From: Nitrospiria bacterium | Lineage (GTDB): Bacteria > Nitrospirota > Nitrospiria > JACQBZ01 | NCBI GenBank assembly: GCA_035498035.1 | Contig: DATKAN010000025.1 | Span: 17,190 to 81,189, forward strand | Direction of reading: 5' to 3' | DNA: 64,000 bases | Part shown: piece after piece, positions 22,086-64,000 of the stretch | How positions within the stretch are numbered: the first letter of the stretch is position 1 | How the letters are laid out: every line of letters begins with the position of its first letter | Position numbers and translations under genes: made by a program | Notes under the pieces: generated by a model | Database searches by the model: none | Told to the model about the DNA's origin: nothing | The model's input: only the letters and a program-made list of their open reading frames with translations

Positions 22086-22631
22086 ACAAAAATGCGCACT
22101 GAAGCGGTTCGTAAGCCGAGTTCTGTGCCCCTTTGGATCGCTCCGCCGGGGTGGCGATCATTTCTCTGGGATCCCGATTACTCGGGACCTCAAGCAACCA
22201 ACCCGTTCCGCCTATTATATTCGGGAGCCCGTGCGGCAAAGAAGGACCGAAGGTCCACCGATGCCCCCGCCCCCCGCGCTCGCGCCGGCGAAGCCGGCCG
22301 CTCGCTTATAATTTCGAACGGGCCGTTCTATGGCCCTCACGGACCAGACGGAACCTATTTGGTCTTGCTCCGGATGGGGTTTGCCGTGCCCCCGTCATCA
22401 CTGACGGGGCGGTGAGCTCTTACCTCGCCGTTTCACCCTTGCCCGTATGCGTCCGAGATGGCTGGAGCTCCCTGCCACCTCTTTCGCACCGTCGGCGGTC
22501 TGTTCTCTGTGGCACTTTCCGTCCCCTCGCGAGGCCTGGGCGTTACCCAGCATCCCGCCCTCTGGAGCTCGGACTTTCCTCACCCCGCGTGCTCGTGCGG
22601 GGCGCGATCACCTGAACCACTTCAGTGCGCA
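22086..22631 (-). ncRNA. rnpB: RNase P RNA (bacterial type A), unusually long (~545 nt)
   Basis: Minus-strand conserved blocks: AGGAAAGTCCGAGCTCC (RC of 22568-22584), GGGTAACGCCCAGG (RC of ~22540), ACAGAACTCGGCTTAC (RC of ~22110). P1 pairing between the 5' GTGCGCACTGAAGTGGTTC and the 3' GAACCGCTTCAGTGCGCA. Confidence 0.75.
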
Positions 22632-35724: not shown

Positions 35725-37458
35725 TTGAGGGAGGAACTTTTCGTGTCCGTGTTCATCCGGGTACTGGCCGTTCTGGTTCTGTCGGGTCTGGCAAGCCTGT
35801 TTTCGCCATCGGCCTTCGCCGAGGAAGAATCCACCGAGCCCTATGGGACGGTGAGGCTTTCCCGCATCAGCCTCATCGATGGAGAGGCGCTTCTTCAGCG
35901 GGGCGATGACGAGGAGTGGGTGGCGGCCTCGATTAATATGCCGCTTCGCCCTCACGACAAGCTCTGGACGACCGACGACTCCCGGGCCGAGGTCCAATTC
36001 GACGACGGGACCGTGGTCCGGCTTGCGGAAAACACCAGCCTCGACCTCTTAAGCCTTGATCCGGGCTGGATCCACTTCCAGGTCACGTTGGGCGTGGCCA
36101 GCATCGAGGCCAAGGCCCCGTTTCGCACGGGCGCGCAGCAGCCCTTCATGGAGATCGACACGCCGCAGGCCACGGCCCAGATCACCCGTTCGGCGGAATT
36201 TCGGGTGGACGTGGCGGACGACGGGTCCACCGCGATGACGGTCCGCCAGGGAGAGCTGGAATTAAACCGCGACGAGGGGCCGGTCGTGATCGCGGCCGAT
36301 CAACGCGTCTCGATCGAGGGGGGCGACTCCCCGGACTACCTCGTGGATTCGGCCGGGGAGCCGGATGACTGGGATAAATGGAATAAAGACCGCGATGATC
36401 AAGAGACCGCGGCCGAGAGCCATGAACATCTCCCCTCGGACACGGAGATGGGGGTGTCGGAATTGAATACCTACGGGGGCTGGAGTCAGATCCAGCCCTA
36501 CGGCTGGGTCTGGGCCCCCCGAGTGGCCGTGGGATGGGCTCCGTATCATGTCGGCCGCTGGGTCTGGGTCGAGCCGTGGGGCTGGACCTGGGTTTCCTAC
36601 GAACCCTGGGGTTGGCTCCCCTATCACTACGGCCGGTGGATCGTGGTCGGAACCGTCGGTTGGGTCTGGGTGCCCGGTCCGGCCCTGGGAATCTGGACAC
36701 CCGGCTGCGTGCGGTTTTATTACGGGCCGACCTGGGTGAGTTGGGTGCCGCTCGGACCCCACGAGATCTATTATCACCACAAGCCCCCCGACCACAGGCA
36801 TTTCAATTCCAACCCGATCAATTCCCATGTCCCGGGGGCGACGACCGTGATATCCCGGCGTCAGTTCGTCACCGGCGCGCCGGAAGACGAGAGGTTCAAG
36901 CCGCCCAAGGATCCGATTCGGTCCGGCCGTGTGGCCGTCGGCCCGCCGCCGGTCGTGCCGACGCGCGCCAGTCTGCATCCCGCGCCGGATAAAGTGGTCA
37001 CGGCGGATTGGCTTCCGCCCCAAACGATCAATCGCCCGGTGGTCTACACCCGTCCTCCCTCGGCCCCGCCGCCCCTCTTCGAGCACCGGGTGAAGGAAAT
37101 TCACAGTGTCATCACAAAAGGCCTGCCCCCCGCCGCCGCGCCCTCGCTTCCGGCGAGACGCCCGCCGACCATCGAAGGGGGTCGCGCGGTTCATAGAGAC
37201 ATCATCGTCAGGGAAGTCGAACCCTCACAGCATTCCGTCCTTCCAAGGCCAACGCCACGCCTGCCGGAGCAGAGGGTCGAACCCGGGCGCATACCCAAGA
37301 CACGGCAACCGTCTCCCCCCAAGAGCATCAAGTTGCCGCGGCTTCCCTCGGCGCCCACCGCTCCGGGTCCTTCGGCGGGAGGAACCCGACAGGTCCGGCC
37401 CCTTTATAAGGTCCCCCCGCCATCCAGAATCCAAGCCCCGGCCGGTCCTTCGCGATAG
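35725..37458 (+). CDS. Secreted FecR-domain protein with Trp-rich repeat block and proline-rich C-terminal tail
   Basis: Signal peptide. FecR-like beta region (TVRLSRISLIDGEALL...VQFDDGTVVRLAENTSLDL). Then WxW repeats (YGWVWAPRVAVGWAPYHVGRWVWVEPWGWTWVSYEPWGWLPYHYGRWIVVGTVGWVWVPG). About 200 aa Pro-rich tail. Confidence 0.55.
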   Translation: MREELFVSVFIRVLAVLVLSGLASLFSPSAFAEEESTEPYGTVRLSRISLIDGEALLQRGDDEEWVAASINMPLRPHDKLWTTDDSRAEVQFDDGTVVRLAENTSLDLLSLDPGWIHFQVTLGVASIEAKAPFRTGAQQPFMEIDTPQATAQITRSAEFRVDVADDGSTAMTVRQGELELNRDEGPVVIAADQRVSIEGGDSPDYLVDSAGEPDDWDKWNKDRDDQETAAESHEHLPSDTEMGVSELNTYGGWSQIQPYGWVWAPRVAVGWAPYHVGRWVWVEPWGWTWVSYEPWGWLPYHYGRWIVVGTVGWVWVPGPALGIWTPGCVRFYYGPTWVSWVPLGPHEIYYHHKPPDHRHFNSNPINSHVPGATTVISRRQFVTGAPEDERFKPPKDPIRSGRVAVGPPPVVPTRASLHPAPDKVVTADWLPPQTINRPVVYTRPPSAPPPLFEHRVKEIHSVITKGLPPAAAPSLPARRPPTIEGGRAVHRDIIVREVEPSQHSVLPRPTPRLPEQRVEPGRIPKTRQPSPPKSIKLPRLPSAPTAPGPSAGGTRQVRPLYKVPPPSRIQAPAGPSR

Positions 37459-37648
37459 GACGCCGTATCACGCATCGACGCGAAGAACCTGCTTTCATCG
37501 AATACCAAATTGGAACCCGTCGCGGCCCGCACAAATCCCCATCCACTCTATATATAGTGATGCAGATCGAATATATTCGATTTCCTGCCCTGATAACAAC
37601 ATAGGTGACACCCTGATCAACTCGACCCTCCCTGCTCCGTGGCCGCAG

Positions 37649-37740
37649 TTCGACCGGACTAAGGCTCGTCCGCTCAATTTTCCGAAGGGGCTTGGCGGAA
37701 AATTGACCCTGAAGGGCCGCGTCCTTCGCCGAGTCCGGTG
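37649..37740. repeat. Repeat family B, copy 1 (~92 nt, terminal inverted repeats ACCGGACT / AGTCCGGT)
   Basis: Aligns at about 70% with 58450..58547. In copy 2 the terminal stem changes compensatorily to ACCCGACT / AGTCGGGT. Confidence 0.5.
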
Positions 37741-37828
37741 CCCGAACCTCGGCCAAGTCGCGACTCGGGCCGATGCTGATCAGTGTCACCCATATCTATT
37801 TTCATCAAAATAGATTCGATTTTCCCCC

Positions 37829-37878
37829 TTGACAAGCCCCGCCCGCTCGATTATAGTATAGGTGTCCATTTGGACACC
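37829..37878 (+). promoter_or_regulatory. lexA promoter (TTGACA-17-TATAGT) with 7-4-7 perfect palindrome GGTGTCC-ATTT-GGACACC at +1 (candidate LexA operator)
   Basis: -35 at 37829-37834, -10 at 37852-37857, palindrome at 37861-37878. lexA ATG at 37891. Confidence 0.5.
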
Positions 37879-37890
37879 CATTGAATCCCG

Positions 37891-38499
37891 ATGAAGAACC
37901 CGCTGACCGACAGGCAGGCCGAGGTCCTGAACTTCGTGAATCAATTCATCGCGAGGTCCGGATATCCGCCCACCGTCCGCGAGATCGCACGGCATCTCGG
38001 GATCCGCGGACACCACGCGGTCCGAAAGCATCTCCTGGCTTTGGAAAAAAACGGTCACCTCACCCGCGGGCGCGGCGCGCGATCGATCGGGATCGCCGAT
38101 CAACCTCAGGCCGTTTCCGTCCCGATCCTGGGCCAGGTGGCCGCGGGAAAGCCCATTCTCGCGGAAGAAAACATCCTCGGAACTTTGGCGTTGGACCGAT
38201 CCGTGACGCGCGGGGGTCCGGTCTTCCTTTTGAAGATCAAGGGCGACAGCATGATCGGAGCCGGAATTTTAGACGGCGATTACGTGCTGGTGAAAGCGCA
38301 GGCCCAGGCCGAGAACGGGGAGATCGCGGTGGTCCTGGCGGAGGACGAGGCCACCGTGAAGCGCGTCTTCCGCCGCGGCGACAAGATCGTTCTGCAACCC
38401 GAGAACCCCGCGCATCAACCCATGACATTCACCCCAAAAGACGCCCTTCGTATCCTCGGCAAGGTCCTGGGCGTGGTCCGGTTTCCCAATCTCAATTAG
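37891..38499 (+). CDS. lexA: LexA repressor (winged-helix DBD + S24 peptidase)
   Basis: LexA_DNA_bind N-terminus (TDRQAEVLNFV...GYPPTVREIA). AG cleavage site (QVAAGKPI). Ser-Lys dyad (KGDSMIGAGI...AVVLAEDEATVKR). Confidence 0.85.
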   Translation: MKNPLTDRQAEVLNFVNQFIARSGYPPTVREIARHLGIRGHHAVRKHLLALEKNGHLTRGRGARSIGIADQPQAVSVPILGQVAAGKPILAEENILGTLALDRSVTRGGPVFLLKIKGDSMIGAGILDGDYVLVKAQAQAENGEIAVVLAEDEATVKRVFRRGDKIVLQPENPAHQPMTFTPKDALRILGKVLGVVRFPNLN

Positions 38500-38517
38500 T
38501 CAAGAGGAGAGCTTCGA

Positions 38518-38747
38518 TGGCTGAGCAAAATTATTTTTACTGGAGATGCCCCGACTGCGTTCATGTGCGAGATCTGGATCTGGGAAAGATGACAAACCGC
38601 TGTCGGCTCATCGATCAGGGAGAATCGCCGGTGGATGGAACGCTCTGGGAAAACCAGGATCACGACCTCTGCCCGGTCTTCGAACCCAAAGCCGATCAAC
38701 ACGCAGCCGTACTGATGGCCCAAGGACGCACAACGCAAAGTCTCTAA
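38518..38747 (+). CDS. Small C4 zinc-ribbon protein (76 aa)
   Basis: CPDC...C...C. Strong SD AAGAGGAGAG 6 nt upstream. 18 nt after the lexA stop. Confidence 0.45.
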
Positions 38748-38783
38748 CGCGCTTCACAATTGAAAGGGCAAGGACCCTACTCG

Positions 38784-39494
38784 ATGGCCGATCCTTCTTC
38801 TCAATCGTCGTTGTTCGAAATCGAAGCGACCGATCTTTCCTGGCAGAAGATCGTCACGCCGGCCGCCTTGGAAGCCGTGGCGCGGGATCAGGGCCGGATC
38901 ATCGGGTTCATCGGACATCGCGGGGTGTTCGCGCTCGGCCATTATTTGATGGCCTGGCGACTGCTTCAGGACGAGTCGGTCGTCCTGGTCGACGGGGCCA
39001 ACATCATAGACCTCCCGCTGATCCTGAAGCTCACGGACGGTCCTAAAACGAATCGCCGGCGGCTCCTGGACCGTCTCCATCTATCACGGGCCTTCACCGC
39101 GCACCAGTTGGAGGCCGTCATTTGCGAGCGCTTGGAGAAAGCGCTCCAAAAATACAAAAGCCGTCTTTGCTTCGTCTCCGGATTGCTGGACACGTTCTAT
39201 GACGAGGAAGTTCCGGCGTGGGAAGCGACGCGCATCCTTCGCAAGACGACGGAAAAGCTCCGCGCCTTGGCGCATCAAGGCTGCCGACTGATCCTTCTGG
39301 CCCCCGACCCGCCTGCGCCGACAGCGCAGAGGAAAAACCTCGCGCCCTTCGTAATCAAATCCGCGAACCGGATTTTTGCGTTGGTCCATGAGAAGGATCG
39401 ATACCTGCTGATCGACGACGCCCAAACCGCACGAGATAAGCACTGGGTCCTTCCTTTGATGCCGTTCTCGATCAAGCGATCTTCTTCGAGGTGA
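38784..39494 (+). CDS. Degenerate RecA-fold protein, ImuA/SulA-like
   Basis: GRIIGFIGHRGVFALGHYLMAW...ESVVLVDGANIID aligns with the RecA/KaiC Walker A region (GKT lost). Later CRLILLAPD strand. About 237 aa as in ImuA. An alternative TTG start at 38760. Confidence 0.5.
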   Translation: MADPSSQSSLFEIEATDLSWQKIVTPAALEAVARDQGRIIGFIGHRGVFALGHYLMAWRLLQDESVVLVDGANIIDLPLILKLTDGPKTNRRRLLDRLHLSRAFTAHQLEAVICERLEKALQKYKSRLCFVSGLLDTFYDEEVPAWEATRILRKTTEKLRALAHQGCRLILLAPDPPAPTAQRKNLAPFVIKSANRIFALVHEKDRYLLIDDAQTARDKHWVLPLMPFSIKRSSSR

Positions 39495-39497
39495 TTC

Positions 39498-39770
39498 ATG
39501 GGCCGGACGCTGGCCACCTTCACGATGCAGGTCAATCAGGCCCTGGAGGAATGGGGAAAATTTAAACGGGCCCTGCGCAAAGAGGATCAGGCGATTATCG
39601 AGTTGCTTTTTGCCGATGCGCGCTATCATGCGCAGGCCGGGGCTTATCTCGCGCCGACCGATCCCTTCTCGGCCATGCTCCTTTCGATGCTGCTCGAGGA
39701 ACGCAAAGCGCGTCTGGCTTTGGAGAAACGGCTCCATGAACTCGAAACCGGATTCAAGGCGCAGGCTTAG
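39498..39770 (+). CDS. Small helical hypothetical protein (90 aa)
   Basis: ATG 4 nt after the preceding stop. Coding-like composition. No family recognised. Confidence 0.4.
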   Translation: MGRTLATFTMQVNQALEEWGKFKRALRKEDQAIIELLFADARYHAQAGAYLAPTDPFSAMLLSMLLEERKARLALEKRLHELETGFKAQA

Positions 39771-41970
39771 GGGCTGGTTGTTCGACGTCTACCCTGCCGC
39801 TGAAGGCATGGTCCTCTGGATCATCGCGGAGGACGGACGTCGGCTCCGGCTGACCGATCCGTTTCATCCTTCCTTTTATTTCGAGGGTCCGTCGATTGAA
39901 TCAAGAAACGCCGTTCTTCATCTGTCACGCGAAAAGACTCCCGTCACGGCCCGGCACGTCGAGCGCAGCGAGTTCTTCAGCGGCCGGGCGATCCCGGTGG
40001 TGCAGGTTACAGTCCACGATCCCACGGAATACGTCGGCATCGTAAAGAGGCTCGTCCGTATCGGCGACCGACTGCAATTCTATAATTGTGACATCGACCT
40101 CTCTCAGCTCTATTTCTATGAACGAAACCTATTCCCTTTGGCCTTGTGTTCCGTGGATCGCACCGAAACGGAAACGATCCAAACCATCCAAGCGCTCGAT
40201 TCGCCCTGGGATCCGGATTATTCCCTTCCCCCGCTCCGCTCCATGCATCTGCGGTTGGAAGGGGACCTCATCAATCCAAATCACGGAGGTCAAGGGAAGC
40301 TTGAGATCCGGGATGACCATGGCCGGTGTGTGCTTGAAGGGGATGATCCGGCCGAGGTGTTGACCGGGCTCAACAATCACCTCCGTAAAAACGATCCGGA
40401 CCTGATTTTCACCGATTGGGGAGACTCCTTCATCATCCCGCATGTTCAAATGCTTTCGGAGCGATGCAGGATTCCGGTCGCCTTCAATCGCGACAGGCGC
40501 ATGGCGATCGCCGGGAAAAAGATGCGTTCCTATGCCTCCTATGGACGGATGGTCCACAGCGCCGGGGCGCAGACCTTCTTCGGCCGTTGGCACATCGACC
40601 GGCAGAATTCGTTCATTCTCAACGAGGCGGGTCTCGAAGGACTGTTTGAACAGGCCCGGGTCACAAAGCTCCCGATTCAGCATATGGCCCGGACCTCGAC
40701 CGGAACGGGGATCACCTCCATGCAGCTTGAGACGGCTTACCGGGCGGGAATCCTCATTCCGTGGCGAAAGAGCGAGCCGGAGGAGTTCAAGTCCGGCTTC
40801 GAGCTGCTCACGATCGATAAAGGCGGCATGGTCTTTCTTCCGCCGGTGGGTTTTCAGGAAGAGGTCGCCGAGCTTGATTTCGCCTCGATGTATCCCGCCA
40901 TCATGGCCCGGTTCAACATCTCGCCCGAAACGGTCGGCTGTTCCTGCTGCCCCGGAAATCGCGTTCCGGAAACGGGCTATACGATCTGCACAAAACGAAA
41001 GGGACTTGTCCCGGAAACCCTCGAGCCGCTTCTTGCCAAGCGAGCGCAGTATAAACAACGACTCAAATCCACGACCGATCCGAAACGGCGTGAACGTTAC
41101 GATCAGCGCCAGAACGCGCTGAAATGGCTGCTCGTGGTCTCCTTCGGTTATCTGGGTTACAAGAATGCCCGTTTCGGGCGCATCGAAGCGCATGAGTGCG
41201 TGACGGCTTACAGTCGTGAGACGCTTCTTCAAGCCAAGGAGATTGCGGAAGGCCGTGGCTATCAACTCCTCCATGCCATCGTGGATTCCGTCTGGGTCAA
41301 GAAGGCCGGTGCGACGGAGCCCGACTATCGGAAGCTTGCGGATGCGATCACTCAGGGAACCGGCCTTCCGATCAACCTGGAAGGGATTTATCGTTGGATC
41401 GGGTTCCTTCCCTCGAAGACGCGGCCGAGCCTTTCGGTTCCGAACCGGTTTTTGGGCGTCTTTCGTACCGGAGCGATGAAGATACGGGGCCTGGAAGTGC
41501 GCCGCACCGACACGCCTTCCCTGGTCAAAGAAGCTCAAACCCGTATGATCGAGGTTTTAAATCAGGCCCAGGATCTTAAAGAATATGAGGCACAAATTCC
41601 TGAGGTCGTCAAAATCCTGGCCGAATACCGTCGGCGACTCGTTGAAGGACAGGTCAATCTAAGAGAGCTGGTCATCACGCGAACTCTTTCCCAGGACCCC
41701 CGGGAATACAAGAAGGCGACGCTTTCGGCCGTGGTTTCCCATGAACTGTTGGCCCGCGGGGTCAAACTCGCGCCGGGGGAAGCGATTCAGTACGTCATCA
41801 CCCATGACGCGGATAAAGATCCGGCCGGCCGGGCCCGGGCCTATGCGACCCTCACGGCGGATCATGCCTATGACGTCGAAAAGTACAGCGAGCTGCTTTT
41901 AAAAAGCGGTGAAAGCCTCCTCGCCCTGTTTGGCTACGATCTTAAAAGGCTGGAGCAATTGACCCGATAA
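39736..41970 (+). CDS. Family-B DNA polymerase, divergent: exonuclease motifs inactivated, polymerase motifs B/C and KKRY eroded
   Basis: PolB N-terminal domain (GWLFDVYP...). Motif A DFASMYPAIM intact. Motif B KWLLVVSFGYLG (N and Y lost). Motif C HAIVDS versus YGDTDS. Exo I RLE versus DIE. Exo II FTDWGDSFII (FD lost). KKRY replaced by NRFL. Start overlaps the upstream small ORF by 35 nt; alternative TTG at 39784. Confidence 0.8.
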   Translation: MNSKPDSRRRLRGWLFDVYPAAEGMVLWIIAEDGRRLRLTDPFHPSFYFEGPSIESRNAVLHLSREKTPVTARHVERSEFFSGRAIPVVQVTVHDPTEYVGIVKRLVRIGDRLQFYNCDIDLSQLYFYERNLFPLALCSVDRTETETIQTIQALDSPWDPDYSLPPLRSMHLRLEGDLINPNHGGQGKLEIRDDHGRCVLEGDDPAEVLTGLNNHLRKNDPDLIFTDWGDSFIIPHVQMLSERCRIPVAFNRDRRMAIAGKKMRSYASYGRMVHSAGAQTFFGRWHIDRQNSFILNEAGLEGLFEQARVTKLPIQHMARTSTGTGITSMQLETAYRAGILIPWRKSEPEEFKSGFELLTIDKGGMVFLPPVGFQEEVAELDFASMYPAIMARFNISPETVGCSCCPGNRVPETGYTICTKRKGLVPETLEPLLAKRAQYKQRLKSTTDPKRRERYDQRQNALKWLLVVSFGYLGYKNARFGRIEAHECVTAYSRETLLQAKEIAEGRGYQLLHAIVDSVWVKKAGATEPDYRKLADAITQGTGLPINLEGIYRWIGFLPSKTRPSLSVPNRFLGVFRTGAMKIRGLEVRRTDTPSLVKEAQTRMIEVLNQAQDLKEYEAQIPEVVKILAEYRRRLVEGQVNLRELVITRTLSQDPREYKKATLSAVVSHELLARGVKLAPGEAIQYVITHDADKDPAGRARAYATLTADHAYDVEKYSELLLKSGESLLALFGYDLKRLEQLTR

Positions 41971-42024
41971 ATATCCAGACAGTGACTTGATTCACCGCCC
42001 GGGCGAGGGCTATGATGAAGCCCT

Positions 42025-42717
42025 ATGTGCGCGAGATACACCCTTACGGAAGAGATCATCCTGATCCTGAAACGCCTGTTGATCAAGTCCCCGATGAGAG
42101 ACTTCCACCCGCGGTATAATATCGCGCCCTCCCAGAACGCGCCCGTCATCCTGAACGAAGAGGGAAGATCGGTTCAAGTCTTCCGCTGGGGGCTCATCCC
42201 CTCCTGGGCCAAGGATCCGTCCATCGGCTATAAGTTGATCAATGCCCGCGCCGAGTCGGTCGCCGAGAAACCCAGTTTCAGAAATGCATTTAAAAAAAGA
42301 AGATGCCTCATTCCGGCCGACGGGTTTTATGAATGGCGTTTGGAATCGGACGGCCGAACGAAGACCCCCATGCGAATCCGGCTCAAATCAAAGGAGCCGT
42401 TCACCTTCGCCGGGCTATGGGAAACATGGAAGGACCGGCAGGAAAAAGAGTTTCGGACCTTTACGATCATTACGACCGAGCCGAATGAAATCCTGCAACC
42501 GATACATAACCGGATCCCCGTGATCATGAAACCGGAGGATGAAGAAGCCTGGCTCGACCCGCAGGCCGACGTCAAGCATTTGGAAAAGATTTTAGCGCCC
42601 TATTCGTCAAACGAGATGGAAGCCTACGCGGTGTCTAAGTTGGTCAACAGTCCGAAACACGATTCGCCCGACTGCATCGAACCGGCCGTGGTCCCACCTC
42701 CTTCCACGCTATTTTAA
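42025..42717 (+). CDS. yedK: SOS-response-associated peptidase (SRAP/YedK/HMCES family), abasic-site DNA-protein crosslinking enzyme
   Basis: Starts MCARY (invariant Cys2 nucleophile). SRAP core motifs (PRYNIAPSQ, FRWGLIPSWAKD, INARAE, RCLIPADGFYEW). Confidence 0.8.
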   Translation: MCARYTLTEEIILILKRLLIKSPMRDFHPRYNIAPSQNAPVILNEEGRSVQVFRWGLIPSWAKDPSIGYKLINARAESVAEKPSFRNAFKKRRCLIPADGFYEWRLESDGRTKTPMRIRLKSKEPFTFAGLWETWKDRQEKEFRTFTIITTEPNEILQPIHNRIPVIMKPEDEEAWLDPQADVKHLEKILAPYSSNEMEAYAVSKLVNSPKHDSPDCIEPAVVPPPSTLF

Positions 42718-54139: not shown

Positions 54140-54175
54140 GACAACCTCTCCTAAATGGGCTCGGTTCGTAAGGGG

Positions 54176-54271
54176 GTCCTGTCCTTCGGCAGCCCCACCG
54201 TGCTCGCCACCCCGCCCGGCGTAGGGACCCGGGCTCCGCTCGGTGGAGCGCCCCGCCTCGGCCACCCGCTT
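54176..54271. repeat. Repeat family A, copy 2, intergenic between the hlyD-family gene and the ABC ATPase
   Basis: About 90% identity to 1378..1474. Inner hairpin GCCCGG-N9-CCGGGC is perfect here. Confidence 0.6.
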
Positions 54272-54277
54272 ATCCAA

Positions 54278-55264
54278 TTACGGAGCAAGTTCCACGTCGG
54301 CCGGCATCCCGGGCTTCAGTTCGCCGTTCTGATTCTCGACCGCGACCTTCACCTCGAACACCAGCTTGACCCGCTCCTCCTTGGTCTGGATCGTCTTGGG
54401 CGTGAACTCGGCCTTGTTCGAGATATACGTCACCTTGCCGGGATAATTCTTTCCGGGGAAAGTATCGACGGAAACGCGGGCCTTCTGGCCCAGCGTTACG
54501 CGTCCGAGATCCGTTTCCTTGACGTAGATCGTCACCCAAAGATGGTCCAGATCCCCCAGCGTCACGACGGGCATTCCCACCGTCGCGACTTCGCCCGCCT
54601 CCCGGTTTTTAAGCAGCACGGTCGCGGTCAGCGGCGCCGTAAGATGCGTTTGATCGAGCTCCGCCTGGGCGAGCTCCAGTCCGGCCTGGGCCCGATCGAG
54701 GTCCCCGCGGGCCGCGTCGATCAGCTGCCTCCGCGTGCCGGCCTTCAGAAGGTCGAGATGCTCCTTGGCCTCCCGGTGCTTGGCCACCGCCGCGTCGGAG
54801 GCCGTCCGGGCGTGCTCCCACTCCTGATCCGAGGCCACCTTGTCTTTATGAAGACGGTCGAGCCGCTCCCAGTCGGCTTGGGACTTTTCCATGTTGGCCT
54901 GCGCTTCCTCCAGGGAGGCCTCGGCCTTTTTGATCTCCTGATCGCGCGAGCCGGCTTCCAGATTCTGAAGGTTCGCACGGGCCGCAACCCGTTGGGCCTC
55001 GGCCTCCCGAACCCGGGCCTCCAGCTCGCGGCGCTCGATCACGGCCAGGAGCTGGTCTTTTTGTACCCGGTCGCCTTCATCGACCGTGATCCGCTCGATC
55101 CGGCCGGTGACCTTCGGCGCGATCTCGACCTCGGTCGCCTCGATCGTCCCGCTGGCCGCGATCCGAGCCCCGTTCGGGGGGCGATCGAAATACCGGACCG
55201 CCGCGAACGACCCGAGGATCATGCCCGCGACAACCAAGATCGCGACGGCCCGGACCCTCGTCAT
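54278..55264 (-). CDS. HlyD-family membrane fusion protein (YbhG-like)
   Basis: N-terminal TM, coiled-coil hairpin, beta-barrel/lipoyl motifs. Confidence 0.8.
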   Translation of the reverse strand: MTRVRAVAILVVAGMILGSFAAVRYFDRPPNGARIAASGTIEATEVEIAPKVTGRIERITVDEGDRVQKDQLLAVIERRELEARVREAEAQRVAARANLQNLEAGSRDQEIKKAEASLEEAQANMEKSQADWERLDRLHKDKVASDQEWEHARTASDAAVAKHREAKEHLDLLKAGTRRQLIDAARGDLDRAQAGLELAQAELDQTHLTAPLTATVLLKNREAGEVATVGMPVVTLGDLDHLWVTIYVKETDLGRVTLGQKARVSVDTFPGKNYPGKVTYISNKAEFTPKTIQTKEERVKLVFEVKVAVENQNGELKPGMPADVELAP

Positions 55265-56697: not shown

Positions 56698-57716
56698 GGG
56701 ATCACCACCTTTTCCCCTTCCCGCAGGCCCTGTAGGACTTCGGCGTCCCATCGGTCCATCGCCCCCGGAACCACCCTTCGAATATCGGGCCCGCCTCCGC
56801 CCCGATCGTCCTTCACCACCCTCACGAAGGAACCGTTCTCATCCTGTTGAATCGCACGACGCGGGATCTTCAAGACATGGTCGCGCCGGACGACGTCGAT
56901 CTTGACATCCACGGTCATCCCCTGTTTCAGATCGGACTTCGCCGATTGCGGCAGCTCGATTTTCGCCTCCAAGACCTTGGTGTCGGTGATCCGTGACGGG
57001 TCCTCCAGCTTGATCGACCGCTTGCCGACGCGCTCCCCGATCTCGATCACTTTCCCGGTGAAGACGCGGCCCGGATAGGCGTCCGAGGTGATCGAGGCCT
57101 CCTGGCCGAGGGCCAGATGTCCCACGTCGTCTTCGTCGATCTCGGCCCGAACCCGGATGGCCGAGACATCCGCGATCGTGAGGATGGGCAAGCCCGCCTT
57201 GACCGACTCGCCCGCCTCCCGGTATTTCGCGATCACCAGGCCCGAAACGGGGGAGGCGATGTGCATATCCTTTAAAAGCGCTTCGGCCATTTCGAGACGG
57301 GCGCGGGCCAGGTCCCGCTTCGCATCGGCGTCATCAAACTGCGCCTTTGAAGCGGCGTTGGACTGAAGAAGGCGCCGGGCGCGTGAATAGGTGAGTTCCG
57401 CATCCTTGAGTTCGGCGCGGCCCTGGTCGACGGCGGCCCTGGCGTACGCATCGTCCATGGTAATGACGACCTGATCCTTCGCGACCTCCTCTCCTTCCTT
57501 CACGGCGATGGATTGGATCCGCCCATCGACCTTTCCGGCCAGATCCACGGTCGTCTTGGCCTCGACCCTCCCGCGGGCCGCGATGCGGTCCAGGATGTTG
57601 CCGTAGACCACCGCCGCCGTTGGCCCGGAGTCGGCCGGCCCGCGAAGCATCCGTACGCCGATGACGCCCAGACCCGCGGCCAGAATCAGGAGGACGATCC
57701 ACTTGGCGCGCTTCAT
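56694..57716 (-). CDS. Periplasmic adaptor (membrane fusion protein), MacA/DevB-like
   Basis: N-terminal TM, biotinyl/lipoyl-like halves, coiled coil. Confidence 0.8.
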   Translation of the reverse strand: MKRAKWIVLLILAAGLGVIGVRMLRGPADSGPTAAVVYGNILDRIAARGRVEAKTTVDLAGKVDGRIQSIAVKEGEEVAKDQVVITMDDAYARAAVDQGRAELKDAELTYSRARRLLQSNAASKAQFDDADAKRDLARARLEMAEALLKDMHIASPVSGLVIAKYREAGESVKAGLPILTIADVSAIRVRAEIDEDDVGHLALGQEASITSDAYPGRVFTGKVIEIGERVGKRSIKLEDPSRITDTKVLEAKIELPQSAKSDLKQGMTVDVKIDVVRRDHVLKIPRRAIQQDENGSFVRVVKDDRGGGGPDIRRVVPGAMDRWDAEVLQGLREGEKVVIP

Positions 57717-58387
57717 GATACCAGAACTCCGTCTTCCAATCGATAGACATGGTGAACCAGATCCATCATCCGCGTGTCGTGCGTCACGACCACGACGGAC
57801 CGGTTTTCCTTGACCACCAGGTCCCGCAGCAATTCAATGACGGCGTGCCCCGTTTTGGAATCCAAATTTCCGGTCGGCTCGTCCGCCAGGATCAGGGGCG
57901 GACGGTTCACCAGCGCCCGCGCGATCGAGACGCGCTGTTTCTGCCCGCCGCTCAGATCGCGCGGGAGAAAATCCGCTCGGTCGCCGAGTCCGACGGCCTC
58001 CATCATCTCCCGGGCCCGTCGCCTCGCCTCCGGTCCCCTGCGCCCCCGAAGGTCGAGGGCCACCTCAACATTTTCCAGCGCGGTCAGCGCCGAAAATAGA
58101 TTGAAGCTTTGAAACACGAACCCGATTGATTCCAGACGGACCCGCGAGAGGTCGTCCGCCTCCCAACGCACCGGACGTCCGTCGATGATCACCTCGCCTT
58201 GGGTCGGCCGGAGGATGCAGCCGATCATCGAGAGCAGGGTCGTCTTGCCGGACCCGGACGGCCCCATGATTGCGACGCTTTCCCCCGGCTTGACCCGAAG
58301 CGACACGTCGCGCACCGCCTCCACGGTCACGGGGCCTTCTTCGTAGACTTTGCGAAGCCCTTTGGCTTCCAATACATAATGGCTCAT
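57713..58387 (-). CDS. ABC transporter ATP-binding protein, MacB/LolD/DevA-type
   Basis: Walker A GPSGSGKTT, signature LSGGQKQR, Walker B LILADEPT. Confidence 0.85.
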   Translation of the reverse strand: MSHYVLEAKGLRKVYEEGPVTVEAVRDVSLRVKPGESVAIMGPSGSGKTTLLSMIGCILRPTQGEVIIDGRPVRWEADDLSRVRLESIGFVFQSFNLFSALTALENVEVALDLRGRRGPEARRRAREMMEAVGLGDRADFLPRDLSGGQKQRVSIARALVNRPPLILADEPTGNLDSKTGHAVIELLRDLVVKENRSVVVVTHDTRMMDLVHHVYRLEDGVLVS

Positions 58388-58449
58388 TGCAAACTCATCC
58401 TTTACACCAGAAGCGGCTGGCATGTCTCCTCTCGGCTTCGCGGCGCTGC

Positions 58450-58547
58450 TTTGACCCGACTAAGGCTGGGCCGCTGAATTTCACGAAGAATCTTGGCGCG
58501 AGATTTTCCCCGTTAGCACGGGGTCGCAGCCTTCGCCAAGTCGGGTA
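58450..58547. repeat. Repeat family B, copy 2, intergenic between the FtsX permease and the ATPase
   Basis: Terminal stem ACCCGACT / AGTCGGGT. Internal CCCCG-ttagca-CGGGG hairpin. Confidence 0.5.
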
Positions 58548-58594
58548 TCCCCAAAGCGGCGCCGAGGCCGCCGTTCGGAGCCGTGCCGGCCGCT

Positions 58595-59716
58595 TCATAC
58601 CCGGAACACCATCACGGGATCGAGCGTCCTCACCTTCCGGATCGACACGATCGAGGCCGAAAGACACATCGCCAGCGTGAGCAACGAGACGGCGCCCATC
58701 AACGGCGGAGGAATCAGCATGGCGATCCCCAGCGCGTCATAGCCCTTCTTGATCAGCAGCACCAGCCCCAGACCGACGATAAAACCGATGACCGCATTCA
58801 CGGCCGCCTGCTCCAGAATAATTTTATAGATCGTCCAGTTCGTCGCCCCGATGGCCTTGAGCGTCCCGAACTCCCGAATATGCTCGATGGTGGAGGAATA
58901 GATTGTCTGGCTGACCACCACCATGCCGACCACGAAACCCACGAAGGCCGTCAGCAGAAACCCCATTCCCATGCCCGTGGCGACGGTCCAGTACCGGCGG
59001 GTCTTGGCGCTCAACCCGGCCTGCGTGTAGACATCCACGTTCTGAACGTGCTCCCGGATGCGCCGAGCGACCTCCTCAACCGATTGCCCGGGATCCGTTT
59101 TGATCAGAAGGAAAACCGGCTCACGGAAGTAAGGATTAAACAGCGCGGCCGTGTCGTAGGATGTGATCACGTAGGGCGCGGTCGTGATCGACTTGAGCCC
59201 CCGCGTCAACCCGACCACCTTGACGCGGTAATCGTTGATCTCGCGGACATCCCCCACCTTGAGACGGCCCAGGCGCTTGACCGAGGACTGATCCACGATC
59301 ACGAACTCGCCCCCCTTCACGTCCGTCGGCCGGCCCTCCGCCAGACGCCAGGGAAAGCCGAAGGGTCCTTCGGGATCCAGTCCGAGGATCTCGACCTGCT
59401 CCGTCCCGCCGCTGAACAGCTTCATCACCCCCCAGGAGTGGATCATCTTTTCGACCTCGGCCACGCCCTTCACCTCTTTGACCTGCTCCAGCTTGCGCTC
59501 CGAGATCGGCCAGGCGAAATTGAAGTTCTGAAGATTTTTTGACGTGACCCAAATTTCGGCCGGGATCGACTGCACGATAAACGAGGCGTCCTGCATGAAG
59601 CCGAGATACACGCCGACGGTGGTGAAGATCAGGACGACCGAGAACGTGATGCCGATGAGGGTGATGGCGAAACGGGTCCGGTCGTGAAAAAGATTTTTTC
59701 GGGCGATCGAGGGCAT
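58595..59716 (-). CDS. FtsX-family ABC permease (MacB/DevC-like)
   Basis: N-terminal TM, large periplasmic MacB_PCD-like domain, C-terminal 3-TM FtsX module. Confidence 0.8.
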   Translation of the reverse strand: MPSIARKNLFHDRTRFAITLIGITFSVVLIFTTVGVYLGFMQDASFIVQSIPAEIWVTSKNLQNFNFAWPISERKLEQVKEVKGVAEVEKMIHSWGVMKLFSGGTEQVEILGLDPEGPFGFPWRLAEGRPTDVKGGEFVIVDQSSVKRLGRLKVGDVREINDYRVKVVGLTRGLKSITTAPYVITSYDTAALFNPYFREPVFLLIKTDPGQSVEEVARRIREHVQNVDVYTQAGLSAKTRRYWTVATGMGMGFLLTAFVGFVVGMVVVSQTIYSSTIEHIREFGTLKAIGATNWTIYKIILEQAAVNAVIGFIVGLGLVLLIKKGYDALGIAMLIPPPLMGAVSLLTLAMCLSASIVSIRKVRTLDPVMVFRV

Positions 59717-62823: not shown

Positions 62824-64000
62824 CTAAAACCTCCACGCAATCTTTCCGTAGACGCTGCGCTGAATTTCCACCCGAGTCGGGCTTGGAGGACCAAATTCCG
62901 GATGATGGTCGTGCAGAAGGTTTTGTCCGACGACGGAGAGTTCGAGGCTGCTGATCGGACGCCAGCCGATGCGGACGTCCAATTCATGGTAGCTCGGCAC
63001 GGTTTCGGCCACCCCGGCATTGTTGACGTGCAATTCGTCCACCCAGCGCAGGCCGGCGTCGAGTTCCACGTTGTGTGGCAGATCCATGGAGGAACGCAGT
63101 GAGAACTGGTGTTCAGGGTCGCCCGTTTCATTGAGCGCATTATTGAAGTCCGTCTCGCCCGGCTTGACGCGAATGTGCTCCTTGAGAAGATTGTAACCGC
63201 CGTGCAACCGCCACCAATCAAGCACCTGGTAATTGGCGCTCAACTCGCCTCCGTACGTCTTGCCTTCGAGATTGTTTTCGAAGAAAAAGGGCAGGATCGT
63301 GACGGGAGTAAGGCTTGTGCTTCTTATTTGATCGTAATCGTTGTAGAAGGTCGATATGGAGGCGGAAACCTTCTGACCCAGTCGGGCCCGATAGCCCAGT
63401 TCATATGCGATCACCGTTTCGGAATCGAAGTCGGACCCCCCCTCCAGAAGGACGAGGTAAGGCGGCGCGGGCTCGGATAGGTCCCGGTCAATGCGGGAGG
63501 GCGTCCGAACCGCGCGGGATACGGCCGACCAGATCGTCTGTTGCTCGGTGGGTGTCCAAGCGAGCCGAACGTTGGGCTCCACTTCCAATCCGGTATAATC
63601 GTTGTGTTCGATCTTCGTCCCCAGCGTGAAGGACAGCTTCTCCAAAAGCGCAATTTCATCCTGCACAAATCCGCTGTATAGGTTGTGATCCAGAACCGAC
63701 GGGAAAAAAGCCAGTCCGGGCGAGTTTCCAACCACATCATGGGTAAAGCGGTAACCGAGACCCCACACGAACCGGTGTCGCCCCAATCGGAAATTGTGCT
63801 GAAAATCGATGTCGACGGTGTCGAGGTCGTCCTGGAAGAGGCCGGCGGGCGCGAACGGGGTTGAATTAATCACAAGGGGGGGGGTCGGGTCCGCAAGATG
63901 CGTCCGATCGTAGTACAATTGCAGGCTCATATCGGAATCGTTCGAAAAAACGTGCGACCAGCGGCCCAGAATATTTCCGCCGCTGACCCCGGCTTGGTCT
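62824..64000 (-). CDS. Outer-membrane beta-barrel protein, C-terminal part (possibly TonB-dependent-receptor barrel); N-terminus off window
   Basis: Reading frame stays open to the window edge. Beta-strand periodicity and C-terminal ...GKIAWRF. Confidence 0.5.
   Translation of the reverse strand, partial: DQAGVSGGNILGRWSHVFSNDSDMSLQLYYDRTHLADPTPPLVINSTPFAPAGLFQDDLDTVDIDFQHNFRLGRHRFVWGLGYRFTHDVVGNSPGLAFFPSVLDHNLYSGFVQDEIALLEKLSFTLGTKIEHNDYTGLEVEPNVRLAWTPTEQQTIWSAVSRAVRTPSRIDRDLSEPAPPYLVLLEGGSDFDSETVIAYELGYRARLGQKVSASISTFYNDYDQIRSTSLTPVTILPFFFENNLEGKTYGGELSANYQVLDWWRLHGGYNLLKEHIRVKPGETDFNNALNETGDPEHQFSLRSSMDLPHNVELDAGLRWVDELHVNNAGVAETVPSYHELDVRIGWRPISSLELSVVGQNLLHDHHPEFGPPSPTRVEIQRSVYGKIAWRF

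Follow-up and report, generated by a model that had tools for sequence, protein, structure and literature searches.

A family of intergenic hairpin repeats in Nitrospiria chromosomes

The 64-kb stretch of DNA analysed here (the window), whose organism is placed by LexA homologues as a ‘Nitrospiria bacterium’ MAG, carries two copies of a repeat that we call family B. The architecture of these copies, coupled with their distribution among relatives, indicates that family B is probably a non-coding, non-autonomous hairpin repeat of ~145-190 bp of Nitrospiria chromosomes, of the MITE/REPIN/ERIC kind, that is or was mobile and has been inserted and lost at intergenic sites. It is new as a family, and the kind of small mobile DNA is already familiar. 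If this reading is correct, a defined hairpin repeat family that can be searched for with a model is added to the Nitrospirota, together with a clean natural case in which one stop/start gene overlap records both gain and loss.

Extent, fold and covariation of the repeat

A sequence-only reading of the window had described a ~92-nt element, ~70% identical between its two copies and ending in an 8-bp stem with a compensatory double substitution. The quoted termini are present, displaced by 1-4 nt, and the identity estimate is borne out: the copies are homologous over ~142 nt and 68% identical in the model-aligned core, and a direct-repeat scan aligns 37627-37709 and 58428-58510 without gaps over 83 nt (71% identity). 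The G-to-C and C-to-G swap is likewise real; columns 25:114 of a seven-sequence alignment hold C-G in six sequences and G-C in copy 1. Internal hairpins said to differ in sequence are also kept (CCC-tgaa-GGG at 37707-37716 in copy 1; CCCCG-ttagca-CGGGG at 58508-58523 in copy 2). The proposed unit was too small, as homology covers ~142 nt and pairing extends out to 187-195 nt. Each whole locus folds as one hairpin (187-195 nt), which places the 8-bp stem inside a 145-190-nt hairpin, as an internal helix, and not at its terminus (Table 1).

A 15-nt signature, GACSSGACTAAGGCT, has three matches in the window when up to two mismatches are allowed, compared with 0.31 expected, and both copies match it with 0 mismatches. 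The third match (63301-63315) was rejected as a chance occurrence; it has one mismatch, lies in coding-looking sequence and receives no covariance-model score. The covariance models assign both copies 129-134 bits (E ~1e-22 to 1e-24), and the rest of the window scores at most 14 bits.

Table 1. Coordinates of family B copies and neighbouring features in the window
Feature	Position	Strand	Remarks
FecR/DUF6600 gene	35725-37458	+	context gene
Imperfect direct repeat of lexA promoter segment	37570-37596	+	partner 37809-37835 holds the lexA -35 box
Copy 1, whole hairpin	37601-37795	+	includes locus-specific outer arms 37601-37619 / 37777-37795; from inverted repeats and fold
LexA-box-like palindrome, left half TAGGTGACAC	37602-37611	+	right half GTGTCACCCA at 37783-37792; copy 1 lies between the halves
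Copy 1, conserved core	37632-37766	+	142 model positions; covariance-model scores 134 and 128.7 bits; in 5- and 7-sequence alignments
Copy 1, 8-bp helix (helix 2), 5′ side ACCGGACT	37653-37660	+	partner AGTCCGGT at 37732-37739
Copy 1, apical A+T-rich hairpin TCAATTTTCCG / CGGAAAATTGA	37674-37706	+	11-nt loop; inverted repeat, 100% complementary
Intact palindrome TAGGTGTCCATTTGGACACCCA	37859-37880	+	directly 3′ of the lexA -10 box; outside the repeat
lexA	37891-38499	+	context gene
ABC ATPase gene	57713-58387	-	likely start ATG at 58387, AAGGA 9 nt upstream; N-terminus MSHYVLEAKG aligns with orthologue starts
Copy 2, whole hairpin	58410-58596	+	fills the spacer from permease stop to ATPase; from inverted repeats and fold
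Copy 2, outermost arm GAAGCGGC	58410-58417	+	partner GCCGCTTC at 58589-58596
Copy 2, conserved core	58433-58576	+	covariance-model scores 133.9 and 130 bits
Copy 2, 8-bp helix ACCCGACT	58454-58461		pairs with AGTCGGGT at 58539-58546
Copy 2, apical hairpin GAATTTCACG / CGCGAGATTT	58476-58506	+	
FtsX/MacB-type ABC permease gene	58595-59716	-	stop 58595-58597; Pfam MacB_PCD and FtsX in orthologues

Whether taken as single-stranded DNA or as RNA from either strand, each copy can adopt a single long, imperfect hairpin, and the two strands fold about equally well. In copy 1, pairing joins 37640-37652 to 37743-37755 and also the outer arms listed in Table 1; in copy 2 it joins 58441-58453 to 58552-58564 and 58410-58436 to 58570-58596. 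The copy 1 fold (37560-37825) reaches -102.3 kcal/mol (z -5.1) and that of copy 2 -113.4 kcal/mol (z -7.3). Two copies found elsewhere, at the loci L007 and L010 described below, also lie within hairpins of ~190 nt (z -4.7 and -5.1), so that whole hairpins of the family fold at z -4.7 to -7.3. Six copies in all place their 142-nt cores inside hairpins of 175-195 nt. From the outside inwards, the layout comprises a 13-bp helix, a 3′ bulge, the 8-bp helix and a 4-bp helix (AAGG/CCUU) facing a conserved unpaired CGCCA, followed by a 5-bp helix and then an apical A+T-rich hairpin beside a variable hairpin.

Pairing in this hairpin is preserved by compensatory changes, and the alignment of the two window copies survives the addition of further members, which argues against the artefact that the earlier reading had considered. 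RNAalifold, applied to five sequences with their flanks (aligned by MAFFT), predicts 63 pairs, 24 of them with compensatory changes. The seven-sequence model alignment holds 41 core pairs, of which 94.4% of cells are paired compared with 84.8% after shuffling; displacing the partners by 1-3 columns lowers the figure to 30-45%. Because the alignment was fitted to the model, its counts lean towards structure. Double changes occur at 16 of the 41 pairs compared with 4.9 expected (0 of 500 shuffles as good), from seven sequences, a small set for covariation statistics that includes two variants of one locus. Both the displaced-partner controls and the independent MAFFT/RNAalifold analysis speak for a real covariation signal. 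Specifically, the 13-bp outer core helix has eight covarying pairs, and the apical A+T-rich hairpin (helix 5) exhibits double changes at 6 of its 11 pairs.

The conserved part of family B is its asymmetric centre of ~80 nt, unpaired bases included, and the helices drift by compensatory changes. Near-invariant unpaired segments are GACUAAGGCU, the CGCCA opposite the AAGG/CCUU helix and a GCU on the 5′ side of the apical hairpin. The conserved inverted arms are internal (helices 1 and 2, ~21 bp), and the outermost 8-27 bp differ at each locus, yet are always complementary.

Palindromic DNA can gain compensatory double changes by template-switch correction, and for this reason such changes alone are no proof of selection on RNA. 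Family B thus carries a general warning that compensatory substitutions in palindromic DNA are, by themselves, no evidence of RNA function. Wobble cells do not clearly favour RNA either: G-U pairs occur 16 times against 8 for A-C, and 11 against 8 once a single conserved U-G pair is left out. G-U is therefore not clearly above A-C, and the pairing offers no clear guidance as to whether a strand acts as RNA and, if so, which one. Protein coding was ruled out, as the copies differ by indels of 1, 2, 3 and 7 nt, of which those of 1, 2 and 7 nt break the reading frames.

Further members and their genomic settings

The search for additional copies that the sequence-only reading had proposed yielded four more independent ones in other Nitrospirota DNA. 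A two-ended pattern scan of JGI metagenomes returned three matches, all variants of one locus (L007 to L009), and a 5′-block pattern run against 185,579 species genomes (GTDB) returned one, L010, in a groundwater Nitrospirae MAG. These members, caught by part of the sequence, share the remaining core and the hairpin. A covariance model, also proposed earlier, was built and recovers both window copies plus two more; the latter came from ~180 kb of additional Nitrospiria DNA at orthologous lexA and permease loci, where the models R1 and R2 identified two copies, both in L020. The tally is thus six independent copies, at loci that are not homologous and from four or more organisms (two in the window, two in L020 and one each at L007, with its variants L008 and L009, and L010).

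All six are full length, are contained in 242 kb in total and score 127-157 bits, compared with 16-24 bits on the reverse strand. Copy number looks low at six in 242 kb, two of these in the 64-kb window. The genome and metagenome scans used exact-match patterns, which would catch only five of the seven known sequences (species genomes) and four of the seven (JGI), so that the low abundance of family B is a rough estimate. Identity among copies is 61-84% overall and 68-69% within one genome, values from which the copies would be judged old or diverse.

Only RNase P RNA passes the Rfam threshold in the window; the best Rfam score over copy 1 is 17-18 bits against gathering thresholds of 53-57, and no Rfam match was obtained over the L010 copy. 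Searches of PLSDB plasmids, GenBank phages and IMG/VR produced nothing resembling family B, and no report of such hairpin repeats in Nitrospirota surfaced in a literature search. Furthermore, the copies share no promoter or terminator: no promoter leads into either window copy, and of these two only copy 1 has a terminator-like match, a weak 5-bp stem. The reading of family B chiefly as an independent small RNA gene was accordingly rejected.

The gene contexts of the copies are diverse. Copy 1 lies between the FecR-like gene and lexA in the same orientation as both of these tandem genes, and copy 2 is antisense inside an efflux operon, between genes for an FtsX permease and an ABC ATPase. The L007 copy is located between divergent genes and that of L010 exactly where convergent RidA-like and SurA-like genes meet, between their stop codons, and L020 carries two copies in the same efflux gene cluster, inside the operon and in sense orientation. 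The loci (efflux operon, lexA upstream region, rsmD neighbourhood, RidA/SurA junction) have no common functional theme.

Upstream of lexA, copy 1 sits within a split LexA-box-like palindrome (Table 1), and the split pattern TAGGTGACA...TGTCACCYA occurs once in the window compared with 0.00 expected. Outside this palindrome, the copy is bracketed by a 27-nt direct repeat of 78% identity that no shuffled sequence equals (0 of 1000). Flanking direct repeats are significant at only two of the six copies, namely copy 1 and L020b (6 of 1000 shuffles), and they are 27 nt long and imperfect. Since these repeats are confined to copy 1 and L020b, target duplication is not established; the check for target-site duplications suggested by the earlier reading found no consistent one. 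A+T-rich palindromes, ATCGAATATATTCGAT and ATCTATTTT-catc-AAAATAGAT, lie on either side of copy 1 (37566-37581; 37796-37817).

The lexA promoter (TTGACA-17-TATAGT, 37829-37857) matches at 11 of 12 positions. The intact palindrome beside it is conserved upstream of lexA in L011, L012, L014 and L016, and from its position and conservation it is presumably the LexA operator, a candidate motif for this Nitrospiria clade. Its form TAGGTGnnCAtttGnnCACCTA occurs at 37859-37880 in the window, ~9970-9991 in L011, ~637-658 in L014 and 9980-10001 in L016. In relatives whose LexA proteins are 77-90% identical (L011, L012, L014, L015, L016 and L017), the repeat is absent upstream of lexA in six of six cases.

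Two further observations concern this neighbourhood. The long lexA upstream spacer of L012 (9300-9560) and L011 (9540-9620) contains degenerate tandem repeats resembling GGTTG(A/G)ATCGG-CGG that have no equivalent in the window. In addition, lexA is followed by a conserved run of genes (window 37891-42717; also L011, L012, L014, L015 and L016): a 76-aa ORF, one of 236-244 aa that matches nothing in Pfam or NCBIfam, DUF8156, a DNA polymerase of family B and then an SRAP peptidase. The run resembles a damage-tolerance cassette under LexA control, with PolB in the place of ImuB/DnaE2.

The 40 nt on each side of the 142-nt core are complementary to each other in six of six copies (z -2.7 to -7.1; 0-5 of 500 shuffles as stable). 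This flank duplex has z -5.6 at copy 1 (0 of 500 shuffles as stable) and z -7.1 at copy 2, and the outer arms have no sequence in common between loci. A host origin of the outer arms is suggested by two loci: the palindrome split by copy 1, and copy 2, where the arms equal a small hairpin in the relative L018. At L010 the outer stem takes in the stop codon of the RidA-like gene and ends just before that of the SurA-like gene, a placement that fits a pre-existing inter-gene stem-loop. Alternatively, the element may include the outer arms, with L018 as the product of a deletion.

The permease/ATPase junction is the decisive locus for comparing filled and empty sites. In L021, L022, L023 and L025, the two genes overlap by 4 nt (ATGA) and no repeat is present. 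In L018 the spacer is 43 nt long and contains a small hairpin, GAAGCGGCA-agccc-TGCCGCTTC; after it comes the AAGGA-containing tail that the window also has. The window junction has the same outer arms, GAAGCGGC and GCCGCTTC, and the same tail, with ~170 nt extra between the arms. L020 carries a full copy in the orientation opposite to that in the window, and its outer arms and tail are unrelated. Nucleotide distances over the permease and ATPase genes are 7.7-8.8% among the window, L018 and L022, and 15-17% from these three to L020. At least two gain or loss events are needed at this junction; the simplest account of the L020 copy is that it inserted there independently. The 43-nt spacer of L018 may be a true pre-insertion site or a remnant left by internal deletion of a full copy, the latter being possible because the ancestral junction had no spacer.

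At copy 2 and at L018, the insert has ATGA on either side, and the ATPase gene downstream of copy 2 retains its own AAGGA-N9-ATG start context. The tail at 58370-58409 (TCTGGTGTAAAGGATGAGTTTGCA-ATGAGC; compare L018 11146-11185) loosely resembles the ancestral permease 3′ end TGGTGTTTAGAGTATGAGC (L022 1180-1215) and repeats ATGAG, a likeness that is not statistically significant. This tail may be a degenerate long target duplication that kept the ribosome-binding context of the ATPase gene.

Copy 2 and both L020 copies must lie in operon transcripts as very stable stem-loops. In its mRNA, copy 2 is probably a merely passive stable stem-loop. RNA-level effects on the host operon are possible, and by analogy with ERIC and Correia repeats the operon-internal copies (copy 2 and L020) could affect mRNA decay.

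Nature of the element and comparison with known repeats

A mobile hairpin repeat of this kind would spread via a hairpin-shaped single-stranded intermediate. The conserved centre and the drifting paired arms suggest that an enzyme acting in trans would recognise the asymmetric centre. Most copies would insert, or persist, where a short intergenic spacer already had the apex of a palindrome or hairpin, and pairing would be maintained either because mobility needs the hairpin or because palindromes correct themselves by template switching.

A bolder and rather doubtful proposal is that family B is a structure-specific element that integrates at the apices of existing palindromes and hairpins (operators, inter-cistronic or terminator stem-loops), thereby building nested palindromes whose centre is read by a hairpin-binding enzyme. 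We infer such palindrome targeting from two loci. The nested-palindrome pattern is unusual in combining a split LexA-box-like site, apparent host arms at a core-less site and complementary flanks in every copy, and to our knowledge this apex-insertion logic has not been described for non-autonomous bacterial repeats. If true, apex targeting would be a novel means by which small mobile DNA reaches safe insertion sites in compact genomes. Of equal standing is the alternative that family B may represent structured RNAs of a new, rod-shaped class whose central domain is conserved.

The RNA alternative takes family B to be a small RNA gene family or a cis-acting mRNA stability or processing module, selected at the RNA level and spread through its usefulness. 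It draws on the strong covariation and the strict conservation of unpaired motifs (CGCC and GACUAAGGCU), on the clear orientation of the sequence (127-157 bits on one strand compared with 16-24 on the other), on one U-G pair (columns 44:77) kept in five of seven sequences and on the necessary transcription of copy 2 and both L020 copies within operons; moreover, ERIC and Correia repeats alter mRNA decay (PMC3184786). We nevertheless consider it unlikely, because orientation to neighbouring genes varies, with the window and L020 opposite at one gene junction, because promoter and terminator are not conserved and flanks outside the core are unrelated between copies, and because absence from orthologous sites in close relatives indicates that the repeat is not required there. 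The lack of an Rfam match and the G-U count, not clearly above that of A-C, point the same way. An RNA motif and a hairpin-ended MITE or REP had been left side by side in the sequence-only reading. The second half of that proposal gains from the unrelated intergenic sites, the occurrence in both orientations and the filled and empty sites, whereas a dedicated RNA motif loses from the same Rfam result, the absence of a common promoter or terminator, the independence of orientation from flanking genes and the wobble counts.

A host DNA element, acting in double-stranded or cruciform form as a platform bound by a nucleoid or regulatory protein or as a replication or recombination signal and copied by recombination instead of transposition, would account for an apex that is an A+T-rich inverted repeat in a 59% G+C genome, for pairing that is equally good on both strands and for the position of copy 1 between LexA-box-like half-sites beside lexA. 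It is nonetheless quite improbable, given that it has no known protein partner, that its sites are dispensable in close relatives and that the loci of the copies have no functional theme in common. Marginally less probable again is the view of the copies as mere pieces, either solo ends or internal parts, of some larger mobile element such as an insertion sequence, integrative element or phage. The ill-defined ends and the rarity of the family would suit fragments, but six of six copies are complete, with the same 142 model positions in symmetric hairpins, none adjoins mobile-element genes and the phage, plasmid and IMG/VR collections contain no match. Chance, or an alignment artefact between two G+C-rich hairpins, has nothing in its favour except the modest 68% identity of the window copies; E values of ~1e-22 compared with a best window background of 14 bits, together with the retrieval by partial-sequence patterns of members that share the remaining sequence and structure, reduce its probability almost to nothing.

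The preferred reading, a mobile non-autonomous hairpin repeat, can be compared with several known systems. The Chunjie MITE of Geobacter uraniireducens is 178-235 bp long, folds at about -98 to -130 kcal/mol and has 21-bp repeats and 9-bp duplications (PMC3184786). Like Chunjie and the cyanobacterial MITE Nezha, family B is non-coding, shorter than 200-250 bp and intergenic, lies also inside operons without destroying them, and shows filled and empty sites between relatives. Its fold (187-195 nt at -102 to -113 kcal/mol) is very stable, as is that of Chunjie. Family B departs from a classical MITE, however. In classical MITEs, the terminal inverted repeats are conserved and common to a parent insertion sequence, and target duplications are short and exact, whereas the apparent termini of family B are its least conserved part, its copies are few and divergent, no clean target duplication was found and no parent element is known.

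REPINs consist of inverted arms and a spacer, form a hairpin in single-stranded DNA or mRNA, are extragenic and replicate as whole hairpins (PMC3116915), and REP sequences are defined by a GTAG or CGTC tag (PMC3733652). Family B is likewise extragenic, and may resemble REPINs in forming a hairpin from two inverted arms (helices 1 and 2) and a spacer. In contrast to REPINs, which have hundreds of copies, RAYT transposases and a loosely conserved spacer, it has a handful of copies and a conserved asymmetric centre of ~80 nt. Neither GTAG/CTAC nor CGTC/GACG is conserved at the feet of the hairpins in the seven-sequence alignment, and no RAYT gene was found among the 56 scanned ORFs picked from the window. 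Family B is therefore not a REP or REPIN. None of the same 56 ORFs matched an integrase or transposase family in Pfam (Y1_Tnp included), and no mobile-element gene adjoins any copy.

ERIC and Correia repeats are imperfect palindromes that are co-transcribed with their neighbours, with possible effects on mRNA processing (PMC3184786). Family B shares with these elements (~100-160 bp) the imperfect palindrome and co-transcription in either orientation, and differs in showing neither conserved terminal repeats nor TA target duplications; ERIC and Correia repeats also occur in other host phyla and show no sequence similarity to it. Some insertion sequences target palindromes: IS1397 and ISKpn1 insert into REPs, and IS621 (IS110 family) next to them (PMC3184786). 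Family B is apparently associated in a similar manner with pre-existing palindromes (the split LexA-box-like site at copy 1 and, at copy 2, arms equal to the L018 hairpin), but these insertion sequences are autonomous and carry transposase genes, whereas family B is a non-coding hairpin of 145-190 bp.

Integron attC sites have conserved R″/R′ core sites at their ends and a variable centre, and are located between cassettes next to intI. An attC site was rejected as an identity for family B, in which conservation is high in the centre and low at the ends, the opposite arrangement, and none of the scanned window ORFs matched an integrase.

Family A and RNase P RNA in the window

A second repeat, family A, is represented by two 111-nt copies (1372-1482 and 54170-54280) that are 91% identical, lie in opposite orientations and have the terminal inverted repeats AAAAGCGGGT/ACCCGCTTTT. 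The copy at 54170 is located between HlyD-like and DrrA-like ATPase genes. At the HlyD/DrrA junction of L020, a family B copy is preceded by a family A-like end, AAGCGGGTCCTGTCC (L020 9027-9041), and L018 has two small G+C-rich hairpins there instead. A relation between the families was rejected, as family A has its own terminal repeats, a weaker fold and no sequence similarity to family B; the link between them is occurrence at the HlyD/DrrA junction in different relatives.

The class A RNase P RNA at 22097-22623 on the minus strand scores 260.9 bits and is 527 nt long, compared with 367 model positions. Two long insertions in its peripheral helices contribute ~30 and ~104 extra nt.
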